A program made the translations under genes and the position numbers. A DNA stretch of 64,000 nucleotides, from positions 70,694 to 134,693 of the forward strand of contig JBAZNY010000002.1 in assembly GCA_041649025.1 (NCBI GenBank). The letters are read 5' to 3'. The notes below the pieces were generated by a model. The model was given only the letters and a program-made list of their open reading frames with translations, did not search any database and had not been told where the DNA came from. This stretch comes from Bdellovibrionales bacterium (GTDB lineage: Bacteria > Pseudomonadota > Alphaproteobacteria > UBA9219). Below, one piece after another: positions 15,339 through 31,939 of this stretch (position 1 is its first letter; each line of letters opens with the position of its first letter).

Positions 15339-15432
15339 GGAGACGTGGCCGAGTGGCTGAAGGCGGCGGTTTGCTAAACCGTTATACGTTTGAAAAGATG
15401 TATCGAGGGTTCGAATCCCTCCGTCTCCGCCA
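15339..15432 (+). tRNA. tRNA-Ser (anticodon GCU)
   Basis: Acceptor ggagacg/cgtctcc, anticodon loop ttGCTaa, a long variable arm, T-arm gaggg-ttcgaat-ccctc and an encoded CCA. Confidence 0.9.
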
Positions 15433-15478
15433 ATTACCTTTTGTCCGACCCGGACACATGGGTAACAGAACGTACCGG

Positions 15479-16028
15479 CTACATAGGTGACACCCGCGAG
15501 CCAAACGGGTTGTCCAGGGGTTGCAAGATCTTCTCCTCCAAGTCGATATAACCTGGATCATAATCCATAAAACTGACAAGCCAAGTGCCTTCTTCGACCT
15601 CTTTGAGGCCGACAGCTTGTCCTGCGAACACGGTCGATAAATTGATTTTTTTTGCGGTGTAAACAGATCCGACCACAATGGGTAACGTTCGCGCTCAGGT
15701 CGTGGAGAGGATACACAAGTTCTGGAAGACCAGTATACACGCGTGGGGAAGGTTTATAAATCTCGGCCGGATACTTCATGCCCAAGGCTTCATGCGGACG
15801 GTCGTTGTTGTATTCTTCGATGAAGTCATCGAACTTGGCTTGCTGTTGGAAGATATTCTCTCCGGGTGGACGCGTAGCTTCTTTCTTCAGCGTCAGATGC
15901 ATGCGTTCATGGCGACCATTCTGTTGAGGATGTGCGCAAATACTGCTCATCCCGCGCTCGTGAGCCAACACAAAGCAAATATTTTTGGGCCGATCTCGCA
16001 ATTTCAGTGTTTGCGGCAATAATCTCAT
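15479..16028 (-). pseudogene. IS481-like DDE transposase remnant (N-terminally truncated and frameshifted)
   Basis: Two overlapping frames carry HPQQNGRHERMH (P-Q-x-N-G-x-x-E-R motif), NNDRPHEALGMKYP and the C-terminal LAGQAVGLKEVEEGTWLVSF. There is no N-terminal HTH or catalytic DD region. Confidence 0.75.
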
Positions 16029-16494
16029 GCGCAGATGTTAGCAGACGAAGCGTTTTGCCTTTTGCGGGCTGCTGGACAAGCGCGCTCGGTTCGAGCTTAA
16101 AAAAAGCTGCAAGGGCAGCAAGCGTTCCTGCGCGGCAACTATAGTTTGGATTGCTTTCCAGATTGCGAATAGTTTTTAAAGAAATTCCGGTTAGATCAGA
16201 TAGCCTTTCCTGCGAAATACCGCTGAGTTTGCGGTATCGCTTTATTTCAATGAAGCTTGGTTTGATTTTTCCGTCGTCTTTAATGACAAGCTCAGGAGCT
16301 AATTGATCTTGAGTATCTTTTTCGCGCTTATGTTGACGCGCAATGTCCGTAAGCATTGAAAAAGATTCTTCTTCACCAAAATCGCCGTTTTTAAAAACCT
16401 CCTTCTGGTTTTCAACACTGGCCCCTTGGTCCAACGGCTCTCGAAGCAAACTCCGGTTCCCCTGTACCATGACTTGCCACACCGCCCCGCGCAC
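15907..16494 (-). CDS. XRE-family HTH protein, apparently 3'-disrupted by the IS remnant (start uncertain)
   Basis: HTH segment LSGISQERLSDLTGISLKTIRNLESN. The ORF runs out of frame into the transposase fragment. It is paralogous in type to 28694-29344 and 30192-30857. Confidence 0.4.
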   Translation of the reverse strand: MRGAVWQVMVQGNRSLLREPLDQGASVENQKEVFKNGDFGEEESFSMLTDIARQHKREKDTQDQLAPELVIKDDGKIKPSFIEIKRYRKLSGISQERLSDLTGISLKTIRNLESNPNYSCRAGTLAALAAFFKLEPSALVQQPAKGKTLRLLTSAHEIIAANTEIARSAQKYLLCVGSRARDEQYLRTSSTEWSP

Positions 16495-16771
16495 AGATTA
16501 AAACCTTGCCAAAACCTTGCACCGCAGCATGCATACTCCATAACATACCTGCGTGTTTTTGGGAACGGGGGCAAACCAACCAAGAAAATCGCTATTTTCC
16601 ATGTATTCTTGATTGCTTCTTTACCTACTTCAAATAGGTCTATCGGTTAAAAACACAGCTTTCAGAAGAGAAAATCGGATGCACAGACATATCCAATAGC
16701 CGAACATCTTAATCTCCTACTAACTATAGGTTCGTCTTTTAAACTCCCATTTCAAGTTCTTTGCTCAGATT

Positions 16772-17245
16772 TTAATTCCACCCAATTTCACAGTATGGCT
16801 TCGGAGAAAGCGATCTGGCGATTCCTTCACGAACATAAGGAACCATGTTCTTGGGGAGCTTATTTACAGGGAAGAAGCGCAAGCCTCCGCATTTGTGAGG
16901 CTCCTTATTACAAATCTCGTTTTTCCATTTCTTGCAGACATAAAAGAGGTCGATTGACTCCCGATCAGGCGAAAAGCGATGAACAATACAAGAAAAGGCC
17001 ATGTCCTTCGGGCGAACAACAATGTCCGCTTCTTCAAAGGCTTCCCGAACCATCGCCGCCGTTGAGCTTTCTCCCCCATCAAGATGTCCCGCGATGACAC
17101 TATAGCTTCCGTCGCAGAAGCCTGTGTTCTGCCGAAGGAGAAGCAGAACCTCTTTTCCCTTAAGCAAAACCAAATGAACGGCAACAGGCATTTCAAAATG
17201 CTTAGACGGAGATTTCTTTTTGGCTTTGCCAACGATCTTACTCAT
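16772..17245 (-). CDS. Nudix hydrolase
   Basis: The Nudix box GHLDGGESSTAAMVREAFEEADI fits Gx5Ex7REuxEExxu. The start is taken at MSKIVGK, which makes an ATGA overlap with the upstream gene stop at 17242-17245. Confidence 0.8.
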   Translation of the reverse strand: MSKIVGKAKKKSPSKHFEMPVAVHLVLLKGKEVLLLLRQNTGFCDGSYSVIAGHLDGGESSTAAMVREAFEEADIVVRPKDMAFSCIVHRFSPDRESIDLFYVCKKWKNEICNKEPHKCGGLRFFPVNKLPKNMVPYVREGIARSLSPKPYCEIGWN

Positions 17246-18225
17246 GACTTCCCCCTGAACTTTTTCGCGAAGCTGTCCGTCGCTCTCACCGTCGCATCCA
17301 AAATGCCCGGATCGTTGTAAACGTGCGCAGCAACCTCCACCATGACCCATTGTGAAGAAGGCCAATTCTTGTGGAGTTCCCATGCCGTCGTCGCTGGGCA
17401 TACGGCATCGTAGCGTCCTTGAATAATTATGCCGGGAATGTTCTTCAGCTTTTTGGCCCCCTTAATAAGAGCACCTTCCTTCATAAATCCCGCGTTCAGG
17501 AAGTAATGGTTCTCAATAGCGGCGAAAGCTAACGCGAATTTATCTCTGGATTTATCGATAGTGTATTCCCCCTTCGGGATAAGGCACATCGCATCGCCTT
17601 CCCAGTCAGACCATGCCCGCGCAGCTTCAATTCTTGTTGCCCGCTTCTTTGAGGCCAATCTTTTCCGATAGGATTTCATAATGTCTTTTTGCTCGGCACG
17701 CGAAAGGATGCCGATAAAGCGATCCCAAGCTTCTGGAAACAGATAAGAAGCGCCCTCCTGATAAAACCACTTCAGCTCTTTCTTTCTGAGCATAAAGGTG
17801 CCTCTTAATATCAGACCGAGTACATTGCGCGGATACCGCTCAGCATAAGCCAAGGCAAGAGTGCTTCCCCATGAGCCTCCCAACATGATCCATCGATTAA
17901 TCCCCAAAAGATGGCGAAGCTTCTCAATATCGGCGACAAGATGCTGTGTTGTGTTTGCCTTCAAACATGTATGAGGGGTGCTGCGCCCACAGCCGCGTTG
18001 ATCAAATAGAATTATCCGATACTTCTTTGGATCAAATAAGCGCCGATGGTCTTTACCGCAGCCGCCGCCAGGCCCACCATGTATAAAGAGAGCTGGAATT
18101 CCGTTCGGATTGCCGCACGTCTCCCAATAAATCTTGTGTCCGTCCCCCACGGAAAGCATGCCGTGATCGTAGGGTTCGATGGAAGGAAAGAAGGAACGCA
18201 AAGATGGGGTTTTATGGGAATTCAT
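17242..18225 (-). CDS. prolyl-aminopeptidase-family (S33) alpha/beta hydrolase
   Basis: YWETCGNPNGIPALFIHGGPGGG, FDQRGCGRS and the nucleophile elbow GGSWGSTLALAYAERYP. The start is taken at MNSHKT, giving an ATGA overlap at 18222-18225. Confidence 0.8.
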   Translation of the reverse strand: MNSHKTPSLRSFFPSIEPYDHGMLSVGDGHKIYWETCGNPNGIPALFIHGGPGGGCGKDHRRLFDPKKYRIILFDQRGCGRSTPHTCLKANTTQHLVADIEKLRHLLGINRWIMLGGSWGSTLALAYAERYPRNVLGLILRGTFMLRKKELKWFYQEGASYLFPEAWDRFIGILSRAEQKDIMKSYRKRLASKKRATRIEAARAWSDWEGDAMCLIPKGEYTIDKSRDKFALAFAAIENHYFLNAGFMKEGALIKGAKKLKNIPGIIIQGRYDAVCPATTAWELHKNWPSSQWVMVEVAAHVYNDPGILDATVRATDSFAKKFRGKS

Positions 18226-18773
18226 GGCGATGGAGCATCCTTTTTTAAACCAATGTGAAAAGCGCGGGAGGGTTCTTTCATGAACTTTGAAACTTCTGGA
18301 TCGCTGTGACAACTATAACCGGCATCATATGTTTTTGCATGCCCCATGTTGCACCAGAAAGAAATCTGGCCTATCCGCATCATCGGATAAACCCTAAAGG
18401 GATGAGCTGACACGATTTCCAGCGTCCACTGGTGACAAGAGCCGGTGTGCCCAAGGTTTGCAGAAATCTGTAAAAACAAGCCGAGCCGCCCCAGAGAGCT
18501 GCGTCCGATTAAGGACATTGCGTATTCTTTGCTGCCCAGAGTCTCATGGGTATGTCCCAGATAGACCGTGTGAGGCTCTAGGACATAGCCCTCCTCAGGA
18601 ATTTTTATCTCTTTGAATCCATAAAGGCGTTCTTCGTCATATTCGGGAACAAGAAGCTTCGGCCCAAGCCTATAGTTATAGCTGTTGGGATTGATTTGAT
18701 CGTCGTTGAACGGAACAATCGTAATATCGCCCGCATCGACCATCTTCTTAATTTCTGTTCCCGTCAAAATCAT
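18222..18773 (-). CDS. dCTP deaminase/dUTPase-fold protein, divergent copy 1
   Basis: MILTGTEI, NPNSYNYRLG, GRSSLGRLGLFL and WTLEI. The Glu equivalent to E. coli Dcd E138 is retained, and DPGW is replaced by HTGS. Confidence 0.7.
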   Translation of the reverse strand: MILTGTEIKKMVDAGDITIVPFNDDQINPNSYNYRLGPKLLVPEYDEERLYGFKEIKIPEEGYVLEPHTVYLGHTHETLGSKEYAMSLIGRSSLGRLGLFLQISANLGHTGSCHQWTLEIVSAHPFRVYPMMRIGQISFWCNMGHAKTYDAGYSCHSDPEVSKFMKEPSRAFHIGLKKDAPSP

Positions 18774-18778
18774 ACTAG

Positions 18779-19870
18779 TTACGCAAAATCCACGGCAAGT
18801 TTTGTAAGTCTCTTATTAAGTATCGCCCTGTCAGGCCCCATTTTTTCTTTCAAATCTTGATAAGAGGAAACGTATGCCGCGATTAAGCCGCCAGCGCTTT
18901 TAGATGCCGTTCCGAAGCAGACCTTTTCCATCTGTTTTGATGCGCGCTCAAGATCGGCTGGCGTTGACATCGTGCGAGGCAATAGCTCGGCGATGCCCTG
19001 AAGATAACTGCGCAAAACCCGTCCGCGCCCGTCCGCAACGGGTTTTATTCCCGATCTCATAATGAAAGTGCTTGCAGCAACGGCATCCGCGATTTTCAAT
19101 TCGTCGTTGGTTTCAGTCGGCAGAAATTCTGCGATAGGAGCTGCATGAATGGGGGTCGGCAGCCCCGTCATTCTGCTGATTGCCGTCTCCACCCCGAAAG
19201 CCATTTCCACCCCAAGCTTTCGTTCACCAGCTTCGATGATGATAATATTTCCAATATCCCCGTACTCCTCGGAATATGGCCCTTTGATTGCAATGTTGCA
19301 GTTTCGCCCCGTTATGCCGTCAATGCCAAATTTATGCGTGTAGTAAACGGGTTCTTTCGTGTCGAACACCAAATACTGGTCGAGCCCAAGGTTTTTCCAG
19401 AAATCAACCAGATCAACGTCCGAGCTGGCGATATGAATCTTGATGGTGTTTGGGTTCAAACACAGCCGTTCCGTCAAAAACTGCCAGAAAAGTTTGGATA
19501 CTTTTTCGACATCATCATATTGCGACAGCGTCCCTGTGCTGAGAAACATGGATGACCAGTTGGGCACATAATTATTGTCTTGAATTCGCCTGGAGTTTTG
19601 CGTCCGCAAACAATCTTGAACCATAAACAGGCCGTTAGGAGGAATGCTCCCGCTAAGAAGAACCGGCTTCAAAGTGCTTATCGTTGAGCCGGTAAAAAGA
19701 ACAGAAGCATCATCCTTAGGAACTAATTTTCCGGCAGGAGCTTGTGAAAACCCATTCTCCAGAAAGAATGACTGAAAATGTGTCGAGAACTCGTTTCTCA
19801 ATCTGCGCAATATCGTTTTGTCGTCGTAATCCTCTATCGCGCGCGTTAGAAGGGAATTATAGTTTGTCAT
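18779..19870 (-). CDS. stand-alone AlaRS catalytic-core-like protein (class IIc aaRS paralogue)
   Basis: 363 aa, collinear by eye with the AlaRS N-terminal domain: FQSFFLENGF.. (vs [10 protein letters not shown]), LVPKDDASVLFTGSTI (vs [16 protein letters not shown]), QDCLRTQN (vs QKSVRAGG), and VEMAFGVETAISRMTG (vs [16 protein letters not shown] in the alaS of this window). No tRNA-recognition, editing or C-Ala domains. Confidence 0.6.
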   Translation of the reverse strand: MTNYNSLLTRAIEDYDDKTILRRLRNEFSTHFQSFFLENGFSQAPAGKLVPKDDASVLFTGSTISTLKPVLLSGSIPPNGLFMVQDCLRTQNSRRIQDNNYVPNWSSMFLSTGTLSQYDDVEKVSKLFWQFLTERLCLNPNTIKIHIASSDVDLVDFWKNLGLDQYLVFDTKEPVYYTHKFGIDGITGRNCNIAIKGPYSEEYGDIGNIIIIEAGERKLGVEMAFGVETAISRMTGLPTPIHAAPIAEFLPTETNDELKIADAVAASTFIMRSGIKPVADGRGRVLRSYLQGIAELLPRTMSTPADLERASKQMEKVCFGTASKSAGGLIAAYVSSYQDLKEKMGPDRAILNKRLTKLAVDFA

Positions 19871-19873
19871 AAT

Positions 19874-20419
19874 TTATGGCTCCGGCTTTTGTTGTGCACT
19901 CTTCTTAAAATCCCTAAATACTTCGGAAGACCTTGGCCCATTTGCCCCCTGATATTTGCCTTTGTAGAGAACGATCTCTCCCTTCGGAACCCAGAAGGAC
20001 ACTTGCCCGACGAGCATTCCTGGATAAAGCCGAATGGGCAGCGTTGCGTAGAGCTGAAACGACAGATTTCCGTGCATACCGAGATCGACGAGATCGGCTG
20101 TTACATGAACAAACAGCCCAAGCCGAGCGATGCTGGAACGCGCGTGAATAATTGGGACAAAGTAGTCGCTTCCAACTTTTTCCTGTGTATGTCCCACAAG
20201 AAAATCCCCCTTCTTCATCAAGATTCCCTTTTCATCTGCGATGATCTCTCGGAACTCCGGCGGATTTCGGGGATCGATAACTGGCGATGTGTACTGGATG
20301 AACTTATTGCCCAGCCGCAGATCATATGAATTTGTCGTCGCCCGTTCAGGATCGAAGGGGCAAATTTCAATCTTTCCCAAGTTCCACTGATTGATAATTT
20401 CTTTTCCGGTCAAAATCAT
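19874..20419 (-). CDS. dCTP deaminase-like protein, copy 2 (catalytic Glu replaced by Gln)
   Basis: MILTGKEI, TNSYDLRLGNKF, ARSSIARLGLFVHVTADLVDLG and RLYPGMLVGQVSF are close to canonical Dcd. The VLEF position reads SFQL. Confidence 0.7.
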   Translation of the reverse strand: MILTGKEIINQWNLGKIEICPFDPERATTNSYDLRLGNKFIQYTSPVIDPRNPPEFREIIADEKGILMKKGDFLVGHTQEKVGSDYFVPIIHARSSIARLGLFVHVTADLVDLGMHGNLSFQLYATLPIRLYPGMLVGQVSFWVPKGEIVLYKGKYQGANGPRSSEVFRDFKKSAQQKPEP

Positions 20420-20493
20420 CGTCGTCTCTATCGCTTGTTAAAATATACCCCGCAGTCGTTTGAATAACCGCAACTGCGGGGCCATTATTATAT

Positions 20494-21594
20494 TTATGGC
20501 GCAGGGCCTTCTTTTCTCTTCTTTTCCCATTGGAGCTTTTTCAGCCAAACGGGCTCATTCTGACGCGGCTTAAAGGAAACGCACAAAGGAACAAACTCAC
20601 CAAAATGATTCCCCTTGTTCTGATTGGTGCACGGAGTGTCCTTGGTCATGTCGTGGCCAAGAAGTTCATTCGTCGGCGTGTTGTTCCAATAGATTTTTTT
20701 GCTATCGTAAAAACCGATGCCGTAAGGAGTCCCAATCATGAGAGAGCAAAGACGGAGCATCCCATTCGGAAAAGCTAGAATACGATCGAACTGCTTGGCG
20801 GAGCAGTATCCATAATATTCCTTGTTTCTCTCAAATTCCTCCTTGACCGTAACGCACTGGGGCATCCGAACATCGATGCCCTTCTCTGTCTCTTTGTACT
20901 TTTGCACTTCTGCAAAGGCCTCCATGTATTCCTTGACGCTGGTATTGATATTATTTGACCAAACGTCGCGCGGAATTCCGCCCTTGAACAAATCATGCAT
21001 GTTGAGCGTCTTGACCCCAAGACCCTTCATAAATTCGATCATGTTGATAAGAGCGAGCTGTCCGTTTTCGGCTTGTGCAGTAAGCCCTTTGTGCACGCAG
21101 CTTGTTACGTGAACGTTGTAGCCCTTTTCGATGGCTTTCTTGATGTTTGAGGTACAGTTTTTGAAGCTACCTTTGCCACGGATGGCATCGTTCATTTCCT
21201 CCGTATAGCCGTCCAGGCTGAACGTAATTTCATCAAGCTCGCGGAAATAGGGATTGTCGAGCAAGGACGGATTGAACATCCCGTTCGTATCGATGCGAAC
21301 GTGCGAATACCCCATTTGCTTCGCTTCATGAATGAGTTCCGGCAGCTTCTTGTATAAAGTCGGCTCTCCTCCCATAAACGTCATCTTAATTGCGCCAAGT
21401 TCGCGCATATTTTTCATGAGATTTAACGCGTCGCCATATTCCATTTCCTTTTTCTGAAGCTGGAATGTGAGTTCAGGCTTGTACAAGCACTGCACGCACC
21501 TCAAATTGCAGGTGTCAGTGAGATACATAAAAACCTGTCCAATTTTATTGTTGAACGCCTGATAAAATTGTTCGTCAATTTCCATTTCGCTCAT
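20494..21594 (-). CDS. radical SAM enzyme with a Cys-rich C-terminal region
   Basis: CNLRCVQC (CX3CX2C) near the N-terminus, then MTFMGGEPTLY, VRIDTNGMF and ITFSLDG. There are additional C-terminal cysteines, possibly an auxiliary cluster domain. Confidence 0.75.
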   Translation of the reverse strand: MSEMEIDEQFYQAFNNKIGQVFMYLTDTCNLRCVQCLYKPELTFQLQKKEMEYGDALNLMKNMRELGAIKMTFMGGEPTLYKKLPELIHEAKQMGYSHVRIDTNGMFNPSLLDNPYFRELDEITFSLDGYTEEMNDAIRGKGSFKNCTSNIKKAIEKGYNVHVTSCVHKGLTAQAENGQLALINMIEFMKGLGVKTLNMHDLFKGGIPRDVWSNNINTSVKEYMEAFAEVQKYKETEKGIDVRMPQCVTVKEEFERNKEYYGYCSAKQFDRILAFPNGMLRLCSLMIGTPYGIGFYDSKKIYWNNTPTNELLGHDMTKDTPCTNQNKGNHFGEFVPLCVSFKPRQNEPVWLKKLQWEKKRKEGPAP

Positions 21595-21721
21595 ATTCGC
21601 CCCCTAAAAATTTATTTCCAAAATGAGAAGCGCTCATTTTGTGTTTGAAAATTAGTGGGTGCCGGTTTTACCCGCATCCCCCGTTCGGGGGTTTTTGATG
21701 TCTCTTCGATAAAAAGAGGTC

Positions 21722-23830
21722 TTAGTTTTTATCTAACGACGAAGTGTTAGATGACGAGTGCGATGCCGGCCTTGTCGGATCGCAGGAAGGCGCGCGTGCT
21801 TTGATTGCTTTCAGGTCGCCAACATCATCGAAGAAACGTTGAAGCCAAATAAGCATCCCTATTCTATTTTCTCTGATGCTTACGTTGTCATCGTTGATGC
21901 GAACGTTTTCAAAAAACTCCGTAACAGTTGTCTCGGTCTCGCTTAAGCGTTGTAGCTTTGCTCCGTAGTCCAGCACAGGAAATTGCAGCGTCATCTTCGC
22001 CAACATCCCGCACATGCGCACATCATAATCCGAAGCCAAGAGCTTGCTGCTTGTGGCATACTCTTTGGTAGCCCAGTCCTTCGGCAATATCTTGCGAACG
22101 CGCGTAGCTACCGCCAATAATTTTGCCCCTTCCGGAGTTTTCATAAACTCCCGAATGGCAGTGCCGCGCTCAAACAAACGGCTTACGTTGTTGGTCTTGT
22201 CGTTATTTAATACCGATGAAATCACATCTTCGGGCAACCCGCGTTCCAGGAACGTTGACCTGATCCGATCCCGCATAAAATCGTCAATCCCTTCAGGAAA
22301 CTTTGCACTGTAAAGTTCCGAAGAAAGAGCAATACCTTCGGAAAGATCATAATCAATATTGTTTTCCAAAAGAATTCTGACCATCCCCAATGCCGTCCGC
22401 CTTAATGAAAATGGGTCGCGGCTGGAGCTAGGTATTTCTCCGATGCTGAAAAAACCGGTCAATGTGTCGATCTTATCTGCCAGCGCTATGGTTGCCGCCG
22501 TCTTCTCTTTCGGGCAAGCATCGCTTGGGCCGAGAGGCGCATAATGGCTTCTTATTGCTTCGGCAACGATTGGGGTTTCCCCCTGCTGCAAAGCACATCT
22601 ATATCCGACAATCCCTTGCAATTCTGGAAATTCATAAACAAGCGATGTGGTGAGATCGGCTTTTGATAAATTGGCCGCATGCTGAACTAAAGAAACGTCA
22701 GCCCCTAGCTTCCGCGCAATTGCCTTTGACAAAGCGGCAACGCGCTGCGTTTTGTCATACATGCTGCCCAATTTGTTATGGAACTTGAGCGTTTGAAGAT
22801 TCTGGACTCTATCGATAAGCGGAACGCTGACATCCTTTGACCAGAAGAAAAGTGCGTCCGACAAACGCGCAGAAATTACTTTCTCATTGCCGACAACGAC
22901 CGTTTTTCCTCCATCCTCTGTTACAGTTCCTGCGGCAAATATAAAGTTGGAAGAAAGGCCTCCATTCTCCTTCTTTAACGAGAAATACTTTTGGTTTGCC
23001 TTCATTGAGGTTGTGATAACCTCCGGAGGAACGTTCAAGAATCTTTCTTCAAACTGCCCAAGCAAAACAATGGGCCATTCTGTCAATCCGGCAACTTCCT
23101 CCAGAAGATCATTATCTTCATTAAGATGCAGTCCCTGTGCTTCTGCTATCCTTTGCGCATCGTTATAAATAATCGATTTGCGTTCGTTTCTATCTATTAC
23201 AACATGTCTCAATGCCAATTCATTTTTGTATTGTGCAAAATCTGTAATACAAAACGACTCTGGATTTAAGAACCTGTGTCCCACAGATTGATTTGTGTAT
23301 TCGAGATTAGTGCCGTTTCCGAGGTCAAAAGCTCCTTCTACGGCCTTGCCGTCAAAAACAACCGAGATGCTTTTCAGAGGACGCGCCCAACGGAACGTAG
23401 TTGATCCCCAACGCATGGATTTCTTCCATGACATCTCCCTTATCGACTTATCGATAACGACTGCCAAAACCTGCTTTGTTTCTCGTTCCTGGACTACCTT
23501 GTTCAAAACATAACATTCCCCTTTTGAAGTGTTCTTTGTTGACAGGTTTGTCTTTTGAGACCCCGTTGCTTTCAAAAAAGCGGAGATAATTTTCTCATTG
23601 CTATTTGTTTTTGGCCCTAATCTTTCAATATTTCTCGCTGGCAAGACGGTTGGAATTCCTTCGATTGCCACAACAAGCCGCCGTGGAGTCGATCCCCGAT
23701 GTAACTCTCCCATGGGGACGCCCGCATCCGAAAGTTCTTTACACAAAATGCTGGCAAATTGTTCTTCCGCTGCTGCTTGCACGTTTGCAGGAAGTTCTTC
23801 CGATAAAAGCTCAACGAGTAATTCCGACAT
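21722..23830 (-). CDS. glyS: glycine--tRNA ligase beta subunit
   Basis: MSELLVELLSEELPAN at the N-terminus, about 700 aa, directly downstream of glyQ (18 bp gap). The start is taken at the internal Met of the ORF. Confidence 0.9.
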   Translation of the reverse strand: MSELLVELLSEELPANVQAAAEEQFASILCKELSDAGVPMGELHRGSTPRRLVVAIEGIPTVLPARNIERLGPKTNSNEKIISAFLKATGSQKTNLSTKNTSKGECYVLNKVVQERETKQVLAVVIDKSIREMSWKKSMRWGSTTFRWARPLKSISVVFDGKAVEGAFDLGNGTNLEYTNQSVGHRFLNPESFCITDFAQYKNELALRHVVIDRNERKSIIYNDAQRIAEAQGLHLNEDNDLLEEVAGLTEWPIVLLGQFEERFLNVPPEVITTSMKANQKYFSLKKENGGLSSNFIFAAGTVTEDGGKTVVVGNEKVISARLSDALFFWSKDVSVPLIDRVQNLQTLKFHNKLGSMYDKTQRVAALSKAIARKLGADVSLVQHAANLSKADLTTSLVYEFPELQGIVGYRCALQQGETPIVAEAIRSHYAPLGPSDACPKEKTAATIALADKIDTLTGFFSIGEIPSSSRDPFSLRRTALGMVRILLENNIDYDLSEGIALSSELYSAKFPEGIDDFMRDRIRSTFLERGLPEDVISSVLNNDKTNNVSRLFERGTAIREFMKTPEGAKLLAVATRVRKILPKDWATKEYATSSKLLASDYDVRMCGMLAKMTLQFPVLDYGAKLQRLSETETTVTEFFENVRINDDNVSIRENRIGMLIWLQRFFDDVGDLKAIKARAPSCDPTRPASHSSSNTSSLDKN

Positions 23831-23848
23831 AATTGTTCTCAACCAAAG

Positions 23849-24715
23849 TTATGGATTTGCTTTAAGAAGCGTCTCGCAACATGCCTTCGCCAAATTTCTC
23901 ACGCGCCCTATATATGCTTGTCTTTCCTGTGGACTGATGACGCCGCGCGCATCAAGCGAATTAAACGTGTTTGCGGCCAAAACACATTGCTCATAGGCCG
24001 GAATTGGAAGTCTCTTCTTTAACAATTCCTCACATGTTTCTTCAAAATCATTGAAGTGCAAGAACAGTTTTTGAGGATTTGAGTGTTCAAAATTATAGGC
24101 CGACATCTGTTTCTCGTTTTCGAGATAAACGTCGCCATATGTCAGGCCTGAATTGTTGTAAGGAAGATCGTAAACGTTGTTCACGTCTAGTACATACATA
24201 GCAAGACGCTCTAACCCATAGGTAAGTTCAAGCGTCACGGGGGAACACTCCAAACCGCCCATTTGCTGAAAATATGTGAACTGCGAGATTTCCATCCCGT
24301 CACACCAGACTTCCCAACCAAGGCCGCTGGCTCCTAAGGTTGGGCTTTCCCAGTCATCCTCAACAAATCGGATATCGTGCAACGCTGGCGTTATCCCGAT
24401 CTCCTTGATGCTGTCCAAATACAATTCCTGGGAATTAGCCGGAGATGGCTTTATCACGACCTGGAATTGATGGTGCATTTGCAGCCGGTTGGGATTCTCT
24501 CCGTATCTGCCGTCTGTCGGACGCCTTGCCTGCTGCACATACGCAGCTTTCCATGGCTTCCCTCCGAGCACCCTAAATACCGTTGCGGGATGATATGTGC
24601 CCGCGCCCATTTGCATATCGTAGGGCTGAAGAAGTGCGCACCCCTTCGATCCCCAGTATTTTTGCAAACCAAGAATAATGTCTTGGTAGCAGCGCAGCTT
24701 TTTGGAATCCTGCAT
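23849..24715 (-). CDS. glyQ: glycine--tRNA ligase alpha subunit
   Basis: [60 protein letters not shown], and [22 protein letters not shown]. Confidence 0.93.
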
Positions 24716-24807
24716 TGCAATTCGTCCTAAAGTTGTTTTTTAATGAATGTGTCTGAATTGATCTGAGGCCACATCCCCCTTTTGGGGGTTTCTGTGCCAA
24801 AAACGCT

Positions 24808-26835
24808 TCAAAGCGCGCTAGTTAATGACAGCAGAGGAAACACCGGTTTTTTCAAGCGAGCCCTTAGTTCATTGAAGTGTTTTCCAGCAAGATCAAACCC
24901 CCCTTTGCTCAGCATCGCGGAACTAATAAAATAGCCATCCCCTTTAACATTCTGCTCATCAACTGCTTTAGCGATGTCATCATGCGTAAGGAGACCAGCA
25001 ACACAGATATTTCCGCCAAAGTGTTGGTTAGACGCGGCAATTATGCGTAAATTACGAACTTTTTCATCAGGACGAAGCAGCTCCGTTGCTGCGTCTAAAA
25101 AAGGCTTCATGATAGAGCTTGTGACAAGAACGGGTTGTTGCAATTCATACTGCCGTTGGTGCGCAGCAATACGCCGGAAAATTGAGAAATCCACATCGTC
25201 ATTCATGAGGATTCCCCATGTTCCGACCTTCTTATCAACCAGCGTTCGCGCCCGCTTCAGTGACTTATAGGCAGAAAGCTCCACATCTCTTTGCATTCCC
25301 CTCGGGTCTCGCACAGCGACGACCATCTTGTTGGCTTGAAGATCATTTAATAGCTGAAGTGCTTCGGTTCGTGACCGTGGAGTTTTCCCATTAACTTCGA
25401 TGATTGTTGATCCCGCTTCGATGCCAGCTTGATCGGCGTTTGATCCTTCAATGACATCTTCTATCGTTGGCGTAAGCCCAGTTCGATTTAGCAATCCTAC
25501 CGTTACAATTATGGCTGTTTTGACAGATGGGCGTAGAGCGGTGACAAATGAATCAATCCGTGCCAATTCTTCTGGTGACAAAAGCAGTTTTGGATTGTGA
25601 TGAAGCGTGCCCGCCGGAAGAGCAACTCGTATATATGACGTCGGCTCATACTTGTCCGCATAACGAATTGTATGCTCGATGTCCTCTAATGGTATCCAAC
25701 TCGTGGCTGCAACAAGAGAAACATCAAACTGAATTCCCAAATCGTGCATTAGCGGTAATGATTGAATAGCAACTTCATGTTGTTCAGGTCTGCCCCCAGG
25801 CATAAGTATTTTTCTGTAGGCAGGGTCCGCGCTGTTCAGCGAGACTTGGAACAGGACTTGCTGGCGAAGCTGATCGTCTTCTGCAATTGCCTTAAGAAGC
25901 TTCTGTTTTAGGTTTCCGCCATGTGTCAGGATGGGGACTTGCGCCTTAGGATCAGCGGCGCATATAAGCTTCAGAACCTTTAGAAATTCAGGATGTTCCG
26001 TTGGCTCCCAATCCATCAGCGCATAACGTAACGGCGGATGCCCAAAACGAGTATTTGCGTCGTAGGAATTTAGAGCGTCCTTAATGTCATCAAGCGATCT
26101 CGCCCATCCGCGCGGGTATCTGACCGTCGAAAAACCTCGATCAACATAACAGAACCGGCATCCCTGATTGCAGTTATTCCATACGAAAGGAATTGCTGCA
26201 TTTTGAGCCGACCCAATAGGAACTTGAAGGGCTTGGGCATCAACGACTTTTGCCACACCTGGTTCAGAAAAATCAAATGTATTCAAAAGCCACTTCCGTA
26301 CCACAGCCTCAAGCGTATCGTTATTATGAACACTCGGTAATGGAATTGCCGGAGAAGGAAATGTTGCCCCGCCAAGAATATGTTGTACCGCCGCTACGCG
26401 CCCATTTAGCACACCCCCTTCATTGAGAAGTTCCACATCGTGCAATAGGGCAAAAGAAATATCTCCCCAATTGATTTGGGCTTTACCTGGATTAGATGCA
26501 GCTCCTGCTTCGAAAGAGCCTTTTCCTAAACGCATATAGGCATCGCATAACAATACTATGGGAGATTCAAACCCAAAAAGTTGACCCTGAACGCTTTGCA
26601 TTTCTTGTTGAGGGATAGGTTTGCTGAGATCGTTAGTACTATTTGAAACTCGAATACGATCAGGAACTAGGATATTGCCGTGAGCATCAAAAAACTGCGA
26701 AAACAGTATGACTGCTTGTGCCAAACCAAGAAAACGAGATTCTTTCGACCCAGCATCGTCAAGAAGACCATATTTCTGAATTTCGATAGCCTTTATCGTT
26801 GAAGAAAATTGTTTTGGCAGCGCGTTATTTACCAT
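24808..26835 (-). CDS. radical SAM / PDZ / DUF512-like multidomain protein with an unassigned roughly 230 aa N-terminal domain
   Basis: CNQGCRFC (CX3CX2C) at about residue 232. A PDZ-like segment IEDVIEGSNADQAGIEAGSTIIEVNGK. The C-terminal FGGNICVAGLLTHDDI resembles DUF512. Confidence 0.6.
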   Translation of the reverse strand: MVNNALPKQFSSTIKAIEIQKYGLLDDAGSKESRFLGLAQAVILFSQFFDAHGNILVPDRIRVSNSTNDLSKPIPQQEMQSVQGQLFGFESPIVLLCDAYMRLGKGSFEAGAASNPGKAQINWGDISFALLHDVELLNEGGVLNGRVAAVQHILGGATFPSPAIPLPSVHNNDTLEAVVRKWLLNTFDFSEPGVAKVVDAQALQVPIGSAQNAAIPFVWNNCNQGCRFCYVDRGFSTVRYPRGWARSLDDIKDALNSYDANTRFGHPPLRYALMDWEPTEHPEFLKVLKLICAADPKAQVPILTHGGNLKQKLLKAIAEDDQLRQQVLFQVSLNSADPAYRKILMPGGRPEQHEVAIQSLPLMHDLGIQFDVSLVAATSWIPLEDIEHTIRYADKYEPTSYIRVALPAGTLHHNPKLLLSPEELARIDSFVTALRPSVKTAIIVTVGLLNRTGLTPTIEDVIEGSNADQAGIEAGSTIIEVNGKTPRSRTEALQLLNDLQANKMVVAVRDPRGMQRDVELSAYKSLKRARTLVDKKVGTWGILMNDDVDFSIFRRIAAHQRQYELQQPVLVTSSIMKPFLDAATELLRPDEKVRNLRIIAASNQHFGGNICVAGLLTHDDIAKAVDEQNVKGDGYFISSAMLSKGGFDLAGKHFNELRARLKKPVFPLLSLTSAL

Positions 26836-26901
26836 GTTGAAATTCCAAAAATGAAATGCTTTAAAAACAATCCGCTCATGTAACCCTTATAAAGAACGTG
26901 T

Positions 26902-27339
26902 TTATAACCCCCTTTGGGGGGTATAAGTTTCAACAAAACAGCGCGTCCCCTCTATTGCATAAGGGGAGATCAAGCCAAGCGTACATGCAATCGAAACGGC
27001 GTTTGCCTTGTTAACCGCGTTAAGCTTGTTCGATATTTTCCGGTGATAATCTTTGACTGTCTCTTCAGATAGACAAACAATGTCCGATATTTCTTTCCGT
27101 GTTTTTCCCCTTGCCGTCCAAGTCAGGATTTCTGCTTCTCTCGCTGTTAGAGGTTCGATGAGGAAGGACTCTGATGAATTCGGTGTGGCATTAGGATAAG
27201 CCAAATATAGCGTGGCCAGATGGGTGCGAACACGAACGCTGGAGCCGTTTTTGCGCAGCGCTGTATGACCAGAGCGGATTTCCTCTACTGGAAACCTTCC
27301 CCCGGACACGTTGCTCAAATTTTCAAAAAGCTCGTCCAT
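26902..27339 (-). CDS. LuxR/FixJ-type HTH transcriptional regulator
   Basis: The C-terminal LTAREAEILTWTARGKTRKEISDIVCLSEETVKDYHRKISNKLNAVNKANAV is a GerE/LuxR HTH. The N-terminal roughly 70 aa is unassigned. Confidence 0.8.
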   Translation of the reverse strand: MDELFENLSNVSGGRFPVEEIRSGHTALRKNGSSVRVRTHLATLYLAYPNATPNSSESFLIEPLTAREAEILTWTARGKTRKEISDIVCLSEETVKDYHRKISNKLNAVNKANAVSIACTLGLISPYAIEGTRCFVETYTPQRGL

Positions 27340-27416
27340 TTATCTTCTTTTGCAAATAGATTAATTTAGTATTCCCGTTGTTAGACAGGTGAATTAATAA
27401 GTTATTGCGTTCTTTC

Positions 27417-27755
27417 CTAAGCAAACAACGCCTTTATCTGTTGGTTTTCCATATTCAGTGTATGTATTTTCAGTGCTTTGGAAGGAGTCATTGTTTTCCG
27501 ATATCTTCCATCATTATTTTTCATTAACCGCTGCTCGACATCAGCCATCGCGTTCGCCATGTGCCACAGCTCGTCGATTTCTTCTTTTGAAAAACCGAGG
27601 AGCAGTAAATCCTGCGGCAAACAGCCCCCATTCTTATGCGTCAGGTCGATAATGACGGTCGCCATGCGTTGATACGGAGCAAATTTGCTATCAAACTCGG
27701 TACTGATATGATCGATTGCTTGCGGAATGAGGCTTGTTTGTAATGCGGATTTCAT
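27417..27755 (-). CDS. hypothetical protein (third gene of a 3-gene overlapping set)
   Basis: 112 aa ORF. Its start overlaps the upstream stop by 4 bp (27752-27755). No recognised motif. Confidence 0.45.
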   Translation of the reverse strand: MKSALQTSLIPQAIDHISTEFDSKFAPYQRMATVIIDLTHKNGGCLPQDLLLLGFSKEEIDELWHMANAMADVEQRLMKNNDGRYRKTMTPSKALKIHTLNMENQQIKALFA

Positions 27756-28189
27756 TGGGGAGTCTCCGCATTCGTGTCTTCGATTTCTTCATCGAGATAT
27801 TTCAGCACCAGATCAGCAACTTTTCCTTGCTTTGCCGTAGCGTAGAGTTGCCACTGCATCCGGCGCGATTTTCGCGTTTGGAGCCGATCATAAAGTTGGA
27901 TGAGGGATTCCTTGTCTTGGGGAATTTGTGTCGAGCCTTTCGTTTTACGTTCTTCAATATATGTCGCAATTGCGTCGTCGATTTTCGCGGCGTCCTCGTC
28001 ATCAACAAAATTGATGGTTCCTGAAGGAAATGCTTGGAAAATATTGAGATTACAGAACTCATCCATGCGCTTGGCAAATTTCACAACCCTTTTTGCCATA
28101 TCCGGTGTTTTGCCTGCCTTCCCGTCGGCAATAACGGTTTGAAAAGCCAGCATAAGGCAAAGGCGCTGATAGAGGATATTCGACGTCAT
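27752..28189 (-). CDS. hypothetical protein (second gene of a 3-gene overlapping set)
   Basis: 145 aa ORF with 4 bp overlaps at both ends. No recognised motif. Confidence 0.45.
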   Translation of the reverse strand: MTSNILYQRLCLMLAFQTVIADGKAGKTPDMAKRVVKFAKRMDEFCNLNIFQAFPSGTINFVDDEDAAKIDDAIATYIEERKTKGSTQIPQDKESLIQLYDRLQTRKSRRMQWQLYATAKQGKVADLVLKYLDEEIEDTNAETPQ

Positions 28190-28473
28190 TTGGATTTCTC
28201 CTCGTTCGCCTTTGCTTCCTTGAATTTGGCAAGAAGGCGCGAAAATGAGCCAATCGCCGGACGGTCGGTCGGCGGCTCAATGAAATTCGCGGAACTCAGT
28301 ATGCTAAGGCCCGTGTGCGAGAAAGCCTGAAGAAACGCTTCACGGGCTGCTGAAGAGTCGAAAGTTCCCTGAAGAATGACGCTGTAGCGCAACTGAGGGT
28401 TTAACGAAGGAGCGACACGCGATGCTGCATCTTCTTTATGTAACGAGAAGGCTACTGTGTTGTCCCTCATCAT
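28186..28473 (-). CDS. hypothetical protein (first gene of a 3-gene overlapping set)
   Basis: 95 aa ORF with a 4 bp overlap to the downstream gene. No recognised motif. Confidence 0.4.
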   Translation of the reverse strand: MMRDNTVAFSLHKEDAASRVAPSLNPQLRYSVILQGTFDSSAAREAFLQAFSHTGLSILSSANFIEPPTDRPAIGSFSRLLAKFKEAKANEEKSK

Positions 28474-28693
28474 ATAAACCCTGAAATAGCGTTTAATTAA
28501 TGAGGCTAGTGTCTGCCGCCCAAGATAGAAGTTCCACGTTCCATCTCGTTGTTTTTCGTCAATTTCGGCTGGAAGAATTGACGAAAAACACTGTTTGTAT
28601 TTATTCGTCGTTTGTGAGGACTGTTCTTGTGAAGAAAAGAATGAAAACGCGGCAAGTAGATTTGCCGCGTTGGGATGCTTTATCAGAATATGG

Positions 28694-29344
28694 TTAGAAA
28701 CTTATCGCCGACGCTTCATTCCAGAGAGACAGAAAGTCTTTTCGTTCGCCTTGAGCGACCCAGGCGATATCGTAAATAACCGCCATGTAATTCAATGCGC
28801 CGTCCGTCAGAACATGGGCGTACTTATTCCCGTAGATAAACATCGAAACTGCGCCGCAGGGGCGATGATCAACCATCCGGCAAGGAAAGAAAGGCTTCTG
28901 AAACGAAGGCTTCGCGATGTCAGACATCAAACACTTGATATCAACAACGGCGCGCAGGGCTTCCAACCGATCCATATTGCTGAGAAAATCGACACCGCAT
29001 TTCCGTGTTAGAATCTTGTCATCCTTCGTAAATACGAGGATTTCTTTCTGTTCCTGATCGATGGTCTTGCAAATATCTTCAAAGAACAGATCGCAACTAT
29101 CGACCCCTCTCAACGTACACACGCCGAAATCGCGGCGGCGAACGCCCTCGCCTTCCGTAAATTCAAGCCCATTGTCCTGAAGCGTCGTGCAAATATCTTG
29201 CAAGGTAGTAATGCGCGGAATTTTTCCAAGTTCCATCGTCCTGATGGTCGAAATGGAAACGCAAGACTTCTCTGCCAGGTCTTCTTGAGACCAGTCGAGC
29301 AAGGCTCTTGCCGCCTTGATTTGTCCTGCACTGACTGGACGCAT
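28694..29344 (-). CDS. XRE-family HTH regulator with an unassigned C-terminal domain
   Basis: N-terminus IKAARALLDWSQEDLAEKSCVSISTIRTMELGK...GLEFTEGEGVRRR. Paralogue of 30192-30857. Confidence 0.7.
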   Translation of the reverse strand: MRPVSAGQIKAARALLDWSQEDLAEKSCVSISTIRTMELGKIPRITTLQDICTTLQDNGLEFTEGEGVRRRDFGVCTLRGVDSCDLFFEDICKTIDQEQKEILVFTKDDKILTRKCGVDFLSNMDRLEALRAVVDIKCLMSDIAKPSFQKPFFPCRMVDHRPCGAVSMFIYGNKYAHVLTDGALNYMAVIYDIAWVAQGERKDFLSLWNEASAISF

Positions 29345-29373
29345 ATTATAAATCCTTCAAAAAAATTCAAAAA

Positions 29374-29727
29374 TCAGTTCATCGCCATTCGAGGATCGAG
29401 ATCAACGAGATAAGCAACGGCTTTGTCAAAATCATTCCGACGAATCTTTTGAATGTCGTCGGTTCTAAAATAATCTTCTACAAGGGAACGAATAACGACT
29501 TCATTGAACTTGTGGGTATATGCAACATAGTCAATAAGCGCGCGAACCGAAGATAATTCCAAACCATTCAGAGTTGGTTCATCGGAACACAAGCCTTCCA
29601 GTGCAGCGTGCAACGCCTTGATAGCAGGATGAAAAACATCTTCTTTCTGGGCAGACACCGACAGCTCGGATTCCTTATTATCGTTGGAAGGGCCTTCTGA
29701 AGAATTGGTGTTGTGCGTTTTGCTCAT
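29374..29727 (-). CDS. hypothetical protein
   Basis: I prefer the internal start MSKTHNT of the 227 aa ORF. The upstream part of that ORF overlaps a better-looking 61 aa ORF in another frame. Confidence 0.35.
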   Translation of the reverse strand: MSKTHNTNSSEGPSNDNKESELSVSAQKEDVFHPAIKALHAALEGLCSDEPTLNGLELSSVRALIDYVAYTHKFNEVVIRSLVEDYFRTDDIQKIRRNDFDKAVAYLVDLDPRMAMN

Positions 29728-29732
29728 GATGA

Positions 29733-29918
29733 TTATCTGGCAACCGCCGTCATGGGCAGAAATTCGGTTGTATCGGGATGGGATAAAAGCGAGGCCCAAC
29801 GTTTTTCCAAGGGAATATTTGTATTGGCAACAATGCCTTGGTAGCGCTCCATACGCTCGATCAAATCTTGAACGCCAAATTCTCCATGGCGCATCATAAA
29901 ATCGTGATAATCCGGCAT
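29733..29918 (-). CDS. hypothetical small protein
   Basis: 61 aa ORF (MPDYHDFMMRHGEFGVQDLIERMERYQ...) that ends 6 bp before the MSKTHNT start. Confidence 0.3.
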   Translation of the reverse strand: MPDYHDFMMRHGEFGVQDLIERMERYQGIVANTNIPLEKRWASLLSHPDTTEFLPMTAVAR

Positions 29919-30191
29919 AATAAGGCTCCGTAATAATTATTTTTGTCTTCCAATATTGGGCAATATATATGGCGGTCTCACTGAAAGCAATTAGAAATTG
30001 TGTTTCATATCGTCCCGCGCTTGATCTCATATCAACTTCAATGGTTGGCATGCCCACAGTAGTTAACAGAAGTTAATTATAAAACTACCTTTTTTGGGTA
30101 GGAACATGCCTTTTGGAGGTAAAAAACATATTGTTCTTGAGTTTTTCAAAAAATAATTTTATAACAAGCGCCACTTGATGTGGGGTATATA

Positions 30192-31531: not shown

Positions 31532-31743
31532 CGGATCACATATTATTTTTCAGAAGACTGAAGAAGAAATTTGTTGTAGTCTGTTCGTAACTCAGGGGGA
31601 GAGAAAAAAATCGAGACCTCAAGTTTTAGGGATTTGAATTCTCGGTTTTCAGGAAATCCCTTTTGGGGATATAAGTGGGGGCATAAGAGGAAATTATGAT
31701 CGGTGATTGTTTAGCAATATCAATCTAATACAAGCCGCGTCCT

Positions 31744-31762
31744 AATCCCTCCGTCTCCGCCA
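31744..31762 (+). repeat. direct repeat of the tRNA-Ser 3' end (att-like, exact 19/19)
   Basis: aatccctccgtctccgcca is identical to 15414-15432 inside tRNA-Ser. Confidence 0.9.
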
Positions 31763-31801
31763 TTCTCATCCGACCCGCCGATTGGCGGGTCGGATGAGAA
31801 T
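31762..31801. repeat. perfect 18-bp-stem hairpin abutting the att-like repeat
   Basis: attctcatccgacccgcc-gatt-ggcgggtcggatgagaat, read directly. Confidence 0.85.
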
Positions 31802-31939
31802 GGAGAAAGCGGGATTCGAACCCGGCAAAAGGGTTCGATGGCAAGCCATTCAAATAGCGTTCGCGGAAGCTCCGCGAACGCACAAAAACAAAAATTTATG
31901 GCGCAGACAGGGCGAGCGGCGCGACAGCGCCGAGAAGCC

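Follow-up and report, generated by a model that had tools for sequence, protein, structure and literature searches.

A probable tRNA-Ser genomic island combining glyQS with an AlaRS-like/DCD gene system: a candidate cassette for an aminoacyl-nucleotide antimetabolite

In the biosynthesis of ascamycin, AcmF, a truncated alanyl-tRNA synthetase (AlaRS)-like protein of about 370 aa, moves alanine, and also glycine or serine, from aminoacyl-tRNA (aa-tRNA) to a nucleoside sulfamate, a reaction for which Glu232 is essential; the same gene cluster encodes AcmD, an AlaRS that provides Ala-tRNA and is more resistant, and AcmE, an alpha/beta hydrolase (PMC12945691, PMC4257720). Self-resistance by extra copies of aminoacyl-tRNA synthetases (aaRSs) has been described for mupirocin (IleRS), indolmycin (TrpRS), albomycin (SerRS), agrocin 84 (LeuRS) and SB-203208 (SbzA) (PMC9437257, PMC12945691), and a 2022 review of duplicated aaRSs includes no antibiotic-linked glycyl-tRNA synthetase (GlyRS) (PMC9437257). 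The window analyzed here is a 64-kb stretch of a metagenome-assembled genome (MAG) of a Bdellovibrionales bacterium (contig JBAZNY010000002.1). It carries a minus-strand cluster of ten genes (16772-27339; all positions are those of the window) in which a truncated AlaRS-like gene is found with genes for two dCTP-deaminase-fold paralogues (DCD-A and DCD-B), two radical SAM (rSAM) enzymes, a prolyl-aminopeptidase-family hydrolase (Pip), a Nudix hydrolase, a GerE/LuxR-type regulator and a two-subunit GlyRS (glyQ and glyS). The cluster lies in a probable genomic island, some 16.3 kb long and inserted at tRNA-Ser, and the island is read here, with moderate confidence, as a biosynthesis-plus-immunity cassette for an aminoacyl-nucleotide antimetabolite aimed at GlyRS. 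An earlier, sequence-only reading of this DNA had drawn a parallel to AlaRS-like genes in the ascamycin cluster, and the parallel holds, the genes being acmF and acmD (PMC12945691, PMC4257720). Compared by its published description, the ascamycin cluster (Streptomyces sp. JCM9888 / 80H647) shares with the window a truncated AlaRS-like protein, a Glu in place of the Asp that binds the alpha-amino group, and a neighboring alpha/beta-hydrolase and complete aaRS; this aaRS is a GlyRS in the window, whereas in ascamycin it is an AlaRS.

The AlaRS-like protein (363 aa) is, on its predicted structure, an AlaRS catalytic and tRNA-recognition fragment with a remodeled active site. Pfam PF01411 aligns to residues 30-172 only, that is, to the first ~150 positions of the AlaRS core, and a profile of 40 homologues matched AlaRS catalytic fragments only; profile matches to AlaRS cover positions 22-157 and 237-339. 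The AF2 model (pLDDT 95.4) gave AlaRS catalytic fragments as its best PDB matches in Foldseek (TM 0.6-0.73), with GlyQ and archaeal AsnA scoring far lower. GlyQ was considered as the origin of the protein and rejected, as the family profile misses the GlyQ of the window and Foldseek places GlyQ far below AlaRS. The aminoacylation and helical tRNA-recognition architecture is of the AcmF type, and editing and C-Ala domains are lacking.

Alignment of the family to the canonical AlaRS of the window showed that the motif-2 Arg (R89), Phe109, Asn208 of the 'WNLVF' strand and an invariant Lys68 are kept. Changed family-wide are the alpha-amino-binding Asp235 of AlaRS (to Glu222), Gly237 (to Ala) and the motif-3 Arg (to Thr or Ser; Thr in the window protein). 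In the helical domain the GRG-x-LR-x-Y motif is present, and the Asn/Asp pair for recognition of G3:U70 is gone. Lys68 aligns with K73 of E. coli AlaRS, the position at which that enzyme cross-links to the 3' end of the tRNA. The substitutions argue against ATP-dependent amino-acid activation. They are compatible with a pocket, tighter than in AlaRS, that would accommodate a nucleotide together with the 3' end of a tRNA. By analogy with AcmF, the protein is proposed to be an aa-tRNA-dependent aminoacyl transferase; aa-tRNA as the acyl donor, in place of ATP and free amino acid, is no more than suggested by the missing motif-3 Arg, the invariant Lys68 and the linkage to GlyRS. The family differs from AcmF, which has Gln219 and a shorter motif-2 loop, in having a canonical-length motif-2 loop and an Asn equivalent to N212 of E. 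coli AlaRS (PMC12945691). The gene is not a housekeeping remnant, since a canonical full-length AlaRS gene (alaS, 889 aa) is located ~10 kb away at 6609-9278, outside the island, and its GC content at third codon positions (GC3, 0.65) is of the host type.

The second line of evidence is the recurrent presence of GlyRS. A profile search of 1.84 billion representatives returned 389 AlaRS-like clusters at E<1e-30, and 133 loci were collected by scanning GTDB genomes together with JGI metagenomes, 101 of them non-redundant, whose neighboring genes were clustered and annotated. Of the 101 loci, 21 have a complete GlyRS gene no more than 4.1 kb from the AlaRS-like gene. Chance would give at most 1.6 for genomes of at least 0.6 Mb (binomial P <=1e-17, a value that is only a guide and overstates certainty because the loci lack phylogenetic independence). 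Near the AlaRS-like genes of the 101 loci, such recurrence is seen for no other full-length aaRS; the ValRS and IleRS genes close to three loci were judged incidental. In 19 of the 21 loci the enzyme is an alpha2 dimeric GlyRS (547-634 bits, cut-off 312). The unrelated alpha2beta2 architecture is found in the other two, the window and locus L051, where a fused GlyQS of 1040 aa adjoins an S66 peptidase, an AsnRS-like gene and an ABC-2 exporter. Two GlyRS paralogues per locus were found in eight cases (L037, L049, L053, L055, L112, L116, L120 and L133), the paired proteins being 63-80% identical (four pairs compared), and several pairs are interleaved with genes of the system, for example in the order AsnRS-like, AlaRS-like, GlyRS, methyltransferase or S66, GlyRS. 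The linkage is seen both in loci of the AsnRS-like type and in those of the DCD type (L019, L071 and the window). GlyQ and GlyS of the window are full-length and score above their equivalog cut-offs; the closest relatives of GlyQ (75-77% identity) have ordinary contexts, and many alphaproteobacterial GlyQ proteins are ~70% identical to it. The island GlyQS is proposed to be a resistant target, a supplier of Gly-tRNA, or both.

Many of the remaining partners of the AlaRS-like genes suit small-molecule chemistry. S66 peptidases are encoded in 73 of the 101 loci, SAM-dependent methyltransferases in 62, and AsnRS/AsnA-like paralogues without an anticodon domain in 59; HD phosphohydrolases (29), the DCD pair (22), metallophosphoesterases (10), ABC exporters (10), rSAM enzymes (7), ATP-grasp ligases (6), HIT-like proteins (4) and MFS transporters (3) are less frequent, and GNAT acetyltransferases also occur among the sister loci. 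The DCD and AsnRS-like modules are mutually exclusive. The S66 partner of L006, the one example tested, belongs to the MccF-like clade, with 364 bits to BA_5613 of B. anthracis, 132 to MccF and 55-63 to LdcA-type murein LD-carboxypeptidases. In Serratia, Ewingella and Paenibacillus the loci consist of a methyltransferase, two DCD proteins, the AlaRS-like protein, a metallophosphoesterase, two ATP-grasp enzymes of the L-amino-acid-ligase type and an MFS transporter, and read like classical biosynthetic clusters. Apart from the window MAG, family members occur in Patescibacteria, Firmicutes, Proteobacteria, Actinobacteria and on cyanobacterial plasmids, and are abundant in the first two.

The sequence-only reading had treated all ten genes as one cluster and had named conservation of the neighborhood in other genomes as a check; the six distal genes do have it. 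The contexts of 41 close relatives of the AlaRS-like protein, found among 5.8 billion clustered proteins, revealed the genes for rSAM, DCD-B, AlaRS-like, DCD-A, Pip and Nudix in identical order in two further lineages (L003/L012, an alphaproteobacterial MAG, and L009/L011), with 55-87% identity. Orthologues of Nudix (67-68% identity, equivalent position) are present in both lineages, and those of Pip (73-76%) and of the core rSAM (69-83%) were compared in L011 and L012. Both lineages are without glyQS and the rSAM/PDZ/DUF512 gene. In L009/L011 a GerE gene is located directly upstream of the rSAM gene, and the L009 protein is 52% identical to the window GerE over the helix-turn-helix (HTH) region; farther upstream in L009 are small ORFs and XRE-type regulators homologous to those of the window. 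Given this synteny, rSAM/PDZ/DUF512, glyQ and glyS are placed between island genes that are contiguous elsewhere, and among the versions of the six-gene system they are present in that of the window alone. The single-cluster claim thus stands for the six distal genes; the position of the GerE gene fits one relative only, and the rSAM/PDZ/DUF512 gene is specific to the window locus. A cyclodipeptide-synthase-like gene (PF16715, precomputed annotation) is found beside a divergent XRE regulator in L006 (6960-7721) and L012 (4004-4741, equal to L004 6004-6741), and the window has no such gene. Cyclodipeptide synthases are another family of aa-tRNA-dependent enzymes.

DCD-A and DCD-B are distinct orthogroups, and both occur in every DCD-type locus, the orthologues being 62-80% (DCD-A) and 57-87% (DCD-B) identical. 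By orthogroup consensus and by alignment to 4xjc, DCD-A retains the catalytic Glu (WTLE), and the VDPGF motif is replaced by GHtgs. In DCD-B (orthogroup consensus; alignment to 4xjc and 2qxx) the catalytic Glu is replaced by Gln (SFQL), and D-x-G and the C-terminal triphosphate lid GKYQG..GP are retained. The full set of housekeeping dCTP deaminase features (the Glu equivalent to E. coli E138, VDPGF and the TIGR02274 score) is seen in neither. Active sites of the dCTP-deaminase fold lie between subunits, and because of this and the complementary changes, a DCD-A/DCD-B hetero-oligomer with divided or novel chemistry is an attractive possibility.

Pip scores as a prolyl aminopeptidase by TIGR01249 and gave 398 bits to the S. 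marcescens enzyme (1qtr) and 382 bits to that of X. citri (1azw). It occupies the place held in sister loci by MccF-like S66 peptidases; no type IV locus (the type of L003 and L009) has an S66 gene, and the window likewise has no MccF-type S66 immunity peptidase. The core rSAM showed generic core similarity only (MoaA, 40 bits; BlsE, 33; viperin, 30), and its PADLOC match to pVip (67 bits) is confined to the core, positions 2-147 of 257. Distant homologues occur in loci (L033-L035, L043, L101-L103 and L109) with the order rSAM (opposite strand), P-loop kinase-like, HIT-like, AlaRS-like and S66 (opposite strand); their rSAM proteins fall in the same BLAST cluster (c8) as that of the window, at low identity (22% for L034). 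The rSAM/PDZ/DUF512 family is rare, with 15 homologues of ~40% identity. One of these (40% identity) heads a cluster in an alphaproteobacterial MAG (L146/L147, 10001-20574) comprising rSAM/PDZ, a 396-aa rSAM and a 236-aa Nudix protein; close to it are genes for a resolvase, an MFS transporter, a GNAT protein and an extra AspRS of the archaeal, non-discriminating type (453 bits). This may be a second type of aaRS-linked cluster. Its rSAM and Nudix proteins were ruled out as counterparts of those in the window, to which they show no similarity.

Features of the cluster and the island are given in Table 1. The ten ORFs, their strand and coordinates in the sequence-only reading were matched by the ORF list and by gene calling done independently on two further assemblies of this contig, with which the starts agree, and the contig structure is the same in three independent assemblies. 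Its family assignments were each reproduced by Pfam and NCBIfam, and the spacing it gave holds with the called starts: ATGA overlaps of 4 bp (17242-17245 for Nudix/Pip and 18222-18225 for Pip/DCD-A) and gaps of 5 bp (DCD-A/AlaRS-like), 3 bp (AlaRS-like/DCD-B), 74 bp (DCD-B/rSAM) and 18 bp (glyS/glyQ). The glyS coordinates correspond to the 702-aa call; the longest ORF extends to 23842.

Table 1. Positions of the cluster genes, island boundaries and associated elements in the 64-kb window
Feature	Position	Strand	Assignment and remarks
tRNA-Ser(GCU)	15339-15432	+	ARAGORN; Rfam tRNA 60.6 bits; 3' end 15414-15432 = attL
XRE-type HTH protein	15907-16494	-	PF01381 34 bits; GC3 0.43; island left end
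Nudix hydrolase	16772-17245	-	PF00293 49 bits; last gene of six-gene core
Pip, prolyl-aminopeptidase-family (S33) hydrolase	17242-18225	-	TIGR01249 397 bits, cut-off 260
DCD-A, dCTP-deaminase-fold paralogue	18222-18773	-	PF22769 112 bits; TIGR02274 64.7 bits, under 92.8 cut-off
AlaRS-like truncated protein, 363 aa	18779-19870	-	PF01411 47 bits
DCD-B, dCTP-deaminase-fold paralogue	19874-20419	-	PF22769 116 bits; TIGR02274 108 bits
Core rSAM enzyme, Cys-rich C-terminal part	20494-21594	-	PF04055 70 bits; first gene of six-gene core
GC hairpin copy 1, CCCCCGAACGGGGGATG	21675-21691	-	glyS/rSAM gap
glyS, GlyRS beta subunit	21722-23830	-	TIGR00211 655 bits, cut-off 300; island-borne
glyQ, GlyRS alpha subunit	23849-24715	-	NF006827 457 bits, cut-off 369; island-borne
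GC hairpin copy 2, CCCCCAAAAGGGGGATG	24772-24788	-	rSAM-PDZ/glyQ gap
rSAM/PDZ/DUF512 protein	24808-26835	-	Pfam Radical_SAM + PDZ_6 + DUF512; island cargo
GerE/LuxR-type regulator	26902-27339	-	PF00196 57 bits
Island genes o112, o145, o95, HTH216 (28694-29344), o227	27417-30057	-	tblastn synteny with L009/L011; HTH216 PF01381 40 bits
Divergent XRE-type HTH regulator, 225 aa	30180-30857	+	PF01381
GNAT acetyltransferase	30854-31531	+	PF00583 54 bits; GC3 0.43; island right end
attR	31739-31762	+	tRNA-Ser 3'-end duplicate, 22/24 nt; perfect 19 nt at 31744-31762

On both sides glyQS is flanked by gaps of 92-127 bp containing hairpins. A 17-nt GC hairpin motif (CCCCCNNNNGGGGGATG) has two matches in the window (0.04 expected), and the pair exactly brackets glyQS. 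No U-tract follows either copy 3' on the coding (minus) strand, and the hairpins may mark the edges of a cassette or serve in RNA processing or antisense termination. A scan for promoters and terminators gave 17 promoter-like sites, with 21 expected. In an Rfam scan of the island the tRNA-Ser was the sole match, with no T-box or riboswitch upstream of glyQS.

The last 19 nt of the tRNA-Ser gene (AATCCCTCCGTCTCCGCCA; repeat family D2) are repeated perfectly at the right end of the island. Between the repeats the GC content is 0.43-0.49, against 0.52-0.57 in the flanks, and GC3 is 0.39-0.59 in island genes (glyS 0.47, glyQ 0.53) and 0.61-0.70 in host genes. No integrase is encoded among the genes inside 15433-31762; the island is recognized by its repeats and atypical composition. 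A further degenerate copy of the tRNA-Ser end is found at 31935-31958. Past attR (31739-32025), inverted T-arm-like pieces occupy 31802-31823 and 31993-32025, a perfect hairpin of 29 nt is found at 31751-31812, and the presence of tRNA-end fragments in both orientations suggests an integration hot spot used repeatedly. An empty integration site was sought with the exact CoaX protein, which returned just the same contig and a short contig ending inside tRNA-Ser. In the Logan assembly of SRR8542065 (L150 and L002, compared with window 15374-15403) the chromosomal contig stops inside tRNA-Ser and the island contig begins ~29 nt further on, a break that could reflect island-bearing and island-free cells in one population.

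The small ORFs of 27417-30057 had no NCBIfam matches. Homologues of the divergent regulator (29-36% identity, cluster c13) adjoin the DCD-type loci L006, L011 and L012. The GNAT protein has weak NCBIfam matches only, to resistance N-acetyltransferases, and a role as an MccE-type detoxifier is speculative. Elsewhere in the window, the ORF at 3289-4194 has a GC content of 0.38 and a GC3 of 0.29 in a genome of ~52% GC, and is probably another foreign gene.

The proposed pathway would begin with DCD-A and DCD-B, perhaps as a hetero-oligomer, which together with the rSAM and Nudix enzymes would act on a pyrimidine (d)NTP to give an acceptor nucleotide bearing a nucleophile, Nudix processing a nucleotide phosphate. 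The AlaRS-like protein, which would keep its sites for a nucleotide and the tRNA 3' end while having lost the Arg for the ATP gamma-phosphate, would then move an aminoacyl group onto this acceptor. The GlyRS linkage and the narrowed pocket make glycyl from Gly-tRNA(Gly) the most likely group, and a reaction on the AcmF pattern would yield a stable glycyl-adenylate mimic. Island GlyQS would sustain translation in the producer and provide Gly-tRNA, like AcmD for ascamycin. Pip, in the role of the MccF-like S66 peptidases, would cleave the aminoacyl-nucleotide bond, either for self-protection or for maturation, and the GerE and XRE-type regulators would govern expression. A wider proposal, possible but more tentative, is that the truncated AlaRS-like proteins mark out a class of tRNA-dependent aminoacyl-nucleotide systems that is widespread and has so far gone undescribed (at least 101 non-redundant loci), that the product is the first natural GlyRS inhibitor, and that in DCD-type members a heteromeric pair of complementary, half-degenerate DCD proteins builds a pyrimidine nucleotide scaffold (a nucleoside phosphoramidate, for example) for subsequent glycylation.

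Of the two hypotheses in the sequence-only reading, the first, an aminoacyl- or peptidyl-nucleotide that would inhibit an aaRS while glyQS confers self-resistance, is the better supported, given the island glyQS, its GlyRS counterparts in other loci, and the MccF-like S66, HIT, GNAT, ATP-grasp and exporter genes, with a product and target that are putative. Several observations weigh against the cassette reading, beginning with the non-independence of the loci mentioned above. Product, target and tRNA dependence are all inferred, and the role of the DCD pair in the pathway is a guess. Dedicated tRNA-Gly genes are neither present nor enriched in 112 loci. Compared with 116 homologues, the window GlyQ has 12 deviations from the consensus, most of them common to relatives in ordinary contexts, and no clear resistance-type substitution. 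A second glyQS elsewhere in the MAG is only predicted, from the island location and composition of this one. The island genes of the window include no exporter or peptide-carrier genes, and the published residue pattern of AcmF was not found among 190 family representatives. Lastly, the surroundings of type IV loci are mobile and have the look of defense islands, with an integrase, a relaxase, Vsr-Dcm and a HATPase protein at L003, and Eco57I and BsuBI restriction genes, Nmad2/3 and NucS at L009.

These surroundings, like the prophage terminase and portal genes that adjoin L006, would suit an anti-phage or abortive-infection system, in which infection would lead to depletion or modification of pyrimidine nucleotides by the DCD pair, rSAM and Nudix, or to synthesis of an intracellular translation poison by the AlaRS-like protein, with Pip or S66 as antidote. 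The XRE-type regulators at the loci, the want of an exporter in the window island and the weak pVip-like core of the rSAM fit this as well. Against it, PADLOC v2 gave no match for the DCD, AlaRS-like, S66, AsnRS-like, HIT and HD proteins (window and type I partner proteins), DCD-B has lost the catalytic Glu, exporters and peptide ligases are present at other loci, and a co-encoded, often duplicated GlyRS suits self-resistance but hardly an abortive-infection poison, so defense is considered unlikely. The window AlaRS-like protein had no match in PLSDB plasmids, INPHARED phages or IMG/VR, and for this reason a phage DNA-hypermodification reading was dropped; with the PADLOC result and the altered DCD-B, it leaves the second hypothesis of the sequence-only reading, manipulation of nucleotide pools or DNA modification for defense, unsupported. 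Equally low in probability is that the product of the six-gene core is an intracellular molecule (a modified nucleotide, a cofactor or a signal) unrelated to aaRS inhibition, with GlyRS as a source of Gly-tRNA only. GlyRS linkage alone cannot tell supply from resistance, many loci including the window are without exporters, and the window GlyQ has no evident resistance substitution; but S66 peptidases in 73 of the 101 loci (MccF-like in the example tested), with HIT and GNAT proteins in some, are known detoxifiers of aminoacyl-nucleotides, several loci have exporters and ATP-grasp ligases, two GlyRS paralogues per operon would be hard to account for if GlyRS served supply only, and the aaRS of the ascamycin cluster does both jobs (PMC12945691).

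A Fem/MurM-like role, that is, tRNA-dependent glycylation of a cell-envelope or nucleotide-linked precursor such as a UDP-linked peptide, with S66 or Pip trimming the product and GlyRS supplying Gly-tRNA, is thought improbable. The S66 family does include murein-recycling LD-carboxypeptidases, uracil and cytosine nucleotides are ligands of DCD-fold proteins, Patescibacteria and Firmicutes have these systems in abundance, and GlyRS linkage fits supply as well as resistance. The S66 partner tested, however, is MccF-like rather than LdcA-like, the distribution is sporadic, island-borne and of low GC, no Mur, Fem or glycosyltransferase genes recur beside the loci, and methyltransferases, HD, HIT, Nudix, metallophosphoesterase, ATP-grasp and drug-type exporters suit small-molecule chemistry better. 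Chance adjacency of a housekeeping glyQS operon and unrelated neighbors would be in keeping with GlyQ and GlyS scoring as ordinary enzymes and with the hairpin-bearing gaps around them. It is highly improbable when glyQS lies between genes contiguous in L009/L011, inside att repeats and with island-type GC3, in an arrangement on which three assemblies agree, and when the linkage recurs in 21 of 101 loci; coincidence is strongly disfavored, to the point of being excluded for practical purposes.

If the cassette reading is true, it would bring a new antibiotic target and warhead pair, with a ready-made resistance marker for genome mining. The known range of AcmF-type chemistry would then grow from a single Streptomyces pathway to a large, phylogenetically broad family, which takes in predatory lineages and the ultra-small Patescibacteria, groups with few known chemical weapons. 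It would also assign a function to a conserved pair of specialized Dcd paralogues. A second glyQS in the genome, toxicity relieved by the island GlyQS, and a glycyl-nucleotide detectable by LC-MS would then be expected. To our knowledge, no natural-product GlyRS inhibitor and no GlyRS self-resistance gene is known, and full-text literature searches returned no description of an AlaRS-like/DCD system, an AlaRS-like and MccF system, or a GlyRS self-resistance gene.

Among described systems, ascamycin is set apart by its sulfate-activation and sulfamate genes, which the window lacks, the scaffold enzymes here being the DCD-like pair, rSAM and Nudix, and by its hydrolase, a secreted esterase of 455 aa, whereas that of the window is a cytoplasmic PIP-type enzyme. 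Microcin C, with its immunity proteins MccF, MccE and MccH, shares with the sister loci an MccF-like S66, HIT, GNAT, SAM-dependent methyltransferases and MFS/ABC exporters, and shares the logic of an aminoacyl-nucleotide warhead against an aaRS combined with hydrolytic immunity. It differs in that the bond-forming enzyme here would be AlaRS-like and the linked aaRS is GlyRS rather than AspRS; no ThiF/MccB-like domain was found in the ten cluster genes, ten flanking ORFs (by Pfam, with the 95-aa ORF 28186-28473 unscanned) or the recurrent neighbor families annotated directly or through similarity to annotated genes, a search that did not take in unannotated ORFs or peptide genes under 70 aa (e.g., MccA-like). 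As in clusters with self-resistance aaRSs, an extra full-length aaRS is found in or beside the putative biosynthetic genes on horizontally acquired DNA, but here both alpha2 and alpha2beta2 GlyRSs have been recruited, with tandem duplication in eight loci. The DCD proteins share with dCTP deaminase and DCD-DUT the fold, the length (181-183 aa in the window) and the RSS-GRLGLF nucleotide-binding motif, DCD-B also scoring above the TIGR02274 cut-off, but they are a conserved pair of specialized paralogues, always beside an AlaRS-like gene, and not stand-alone housekeeping enzymes. Anti-phage dCTP deaminases and pVip likewise combine a DCD fold and rSAM with mobile islands, but differ in that the window DCDs are unmatched by PADLOC and the rSAM matches the generic core only. 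In its logic the proposed system follows ascamycin, SB-203208 and microcin C; the scaffold module, the presumed target and the breadth of the family are new.

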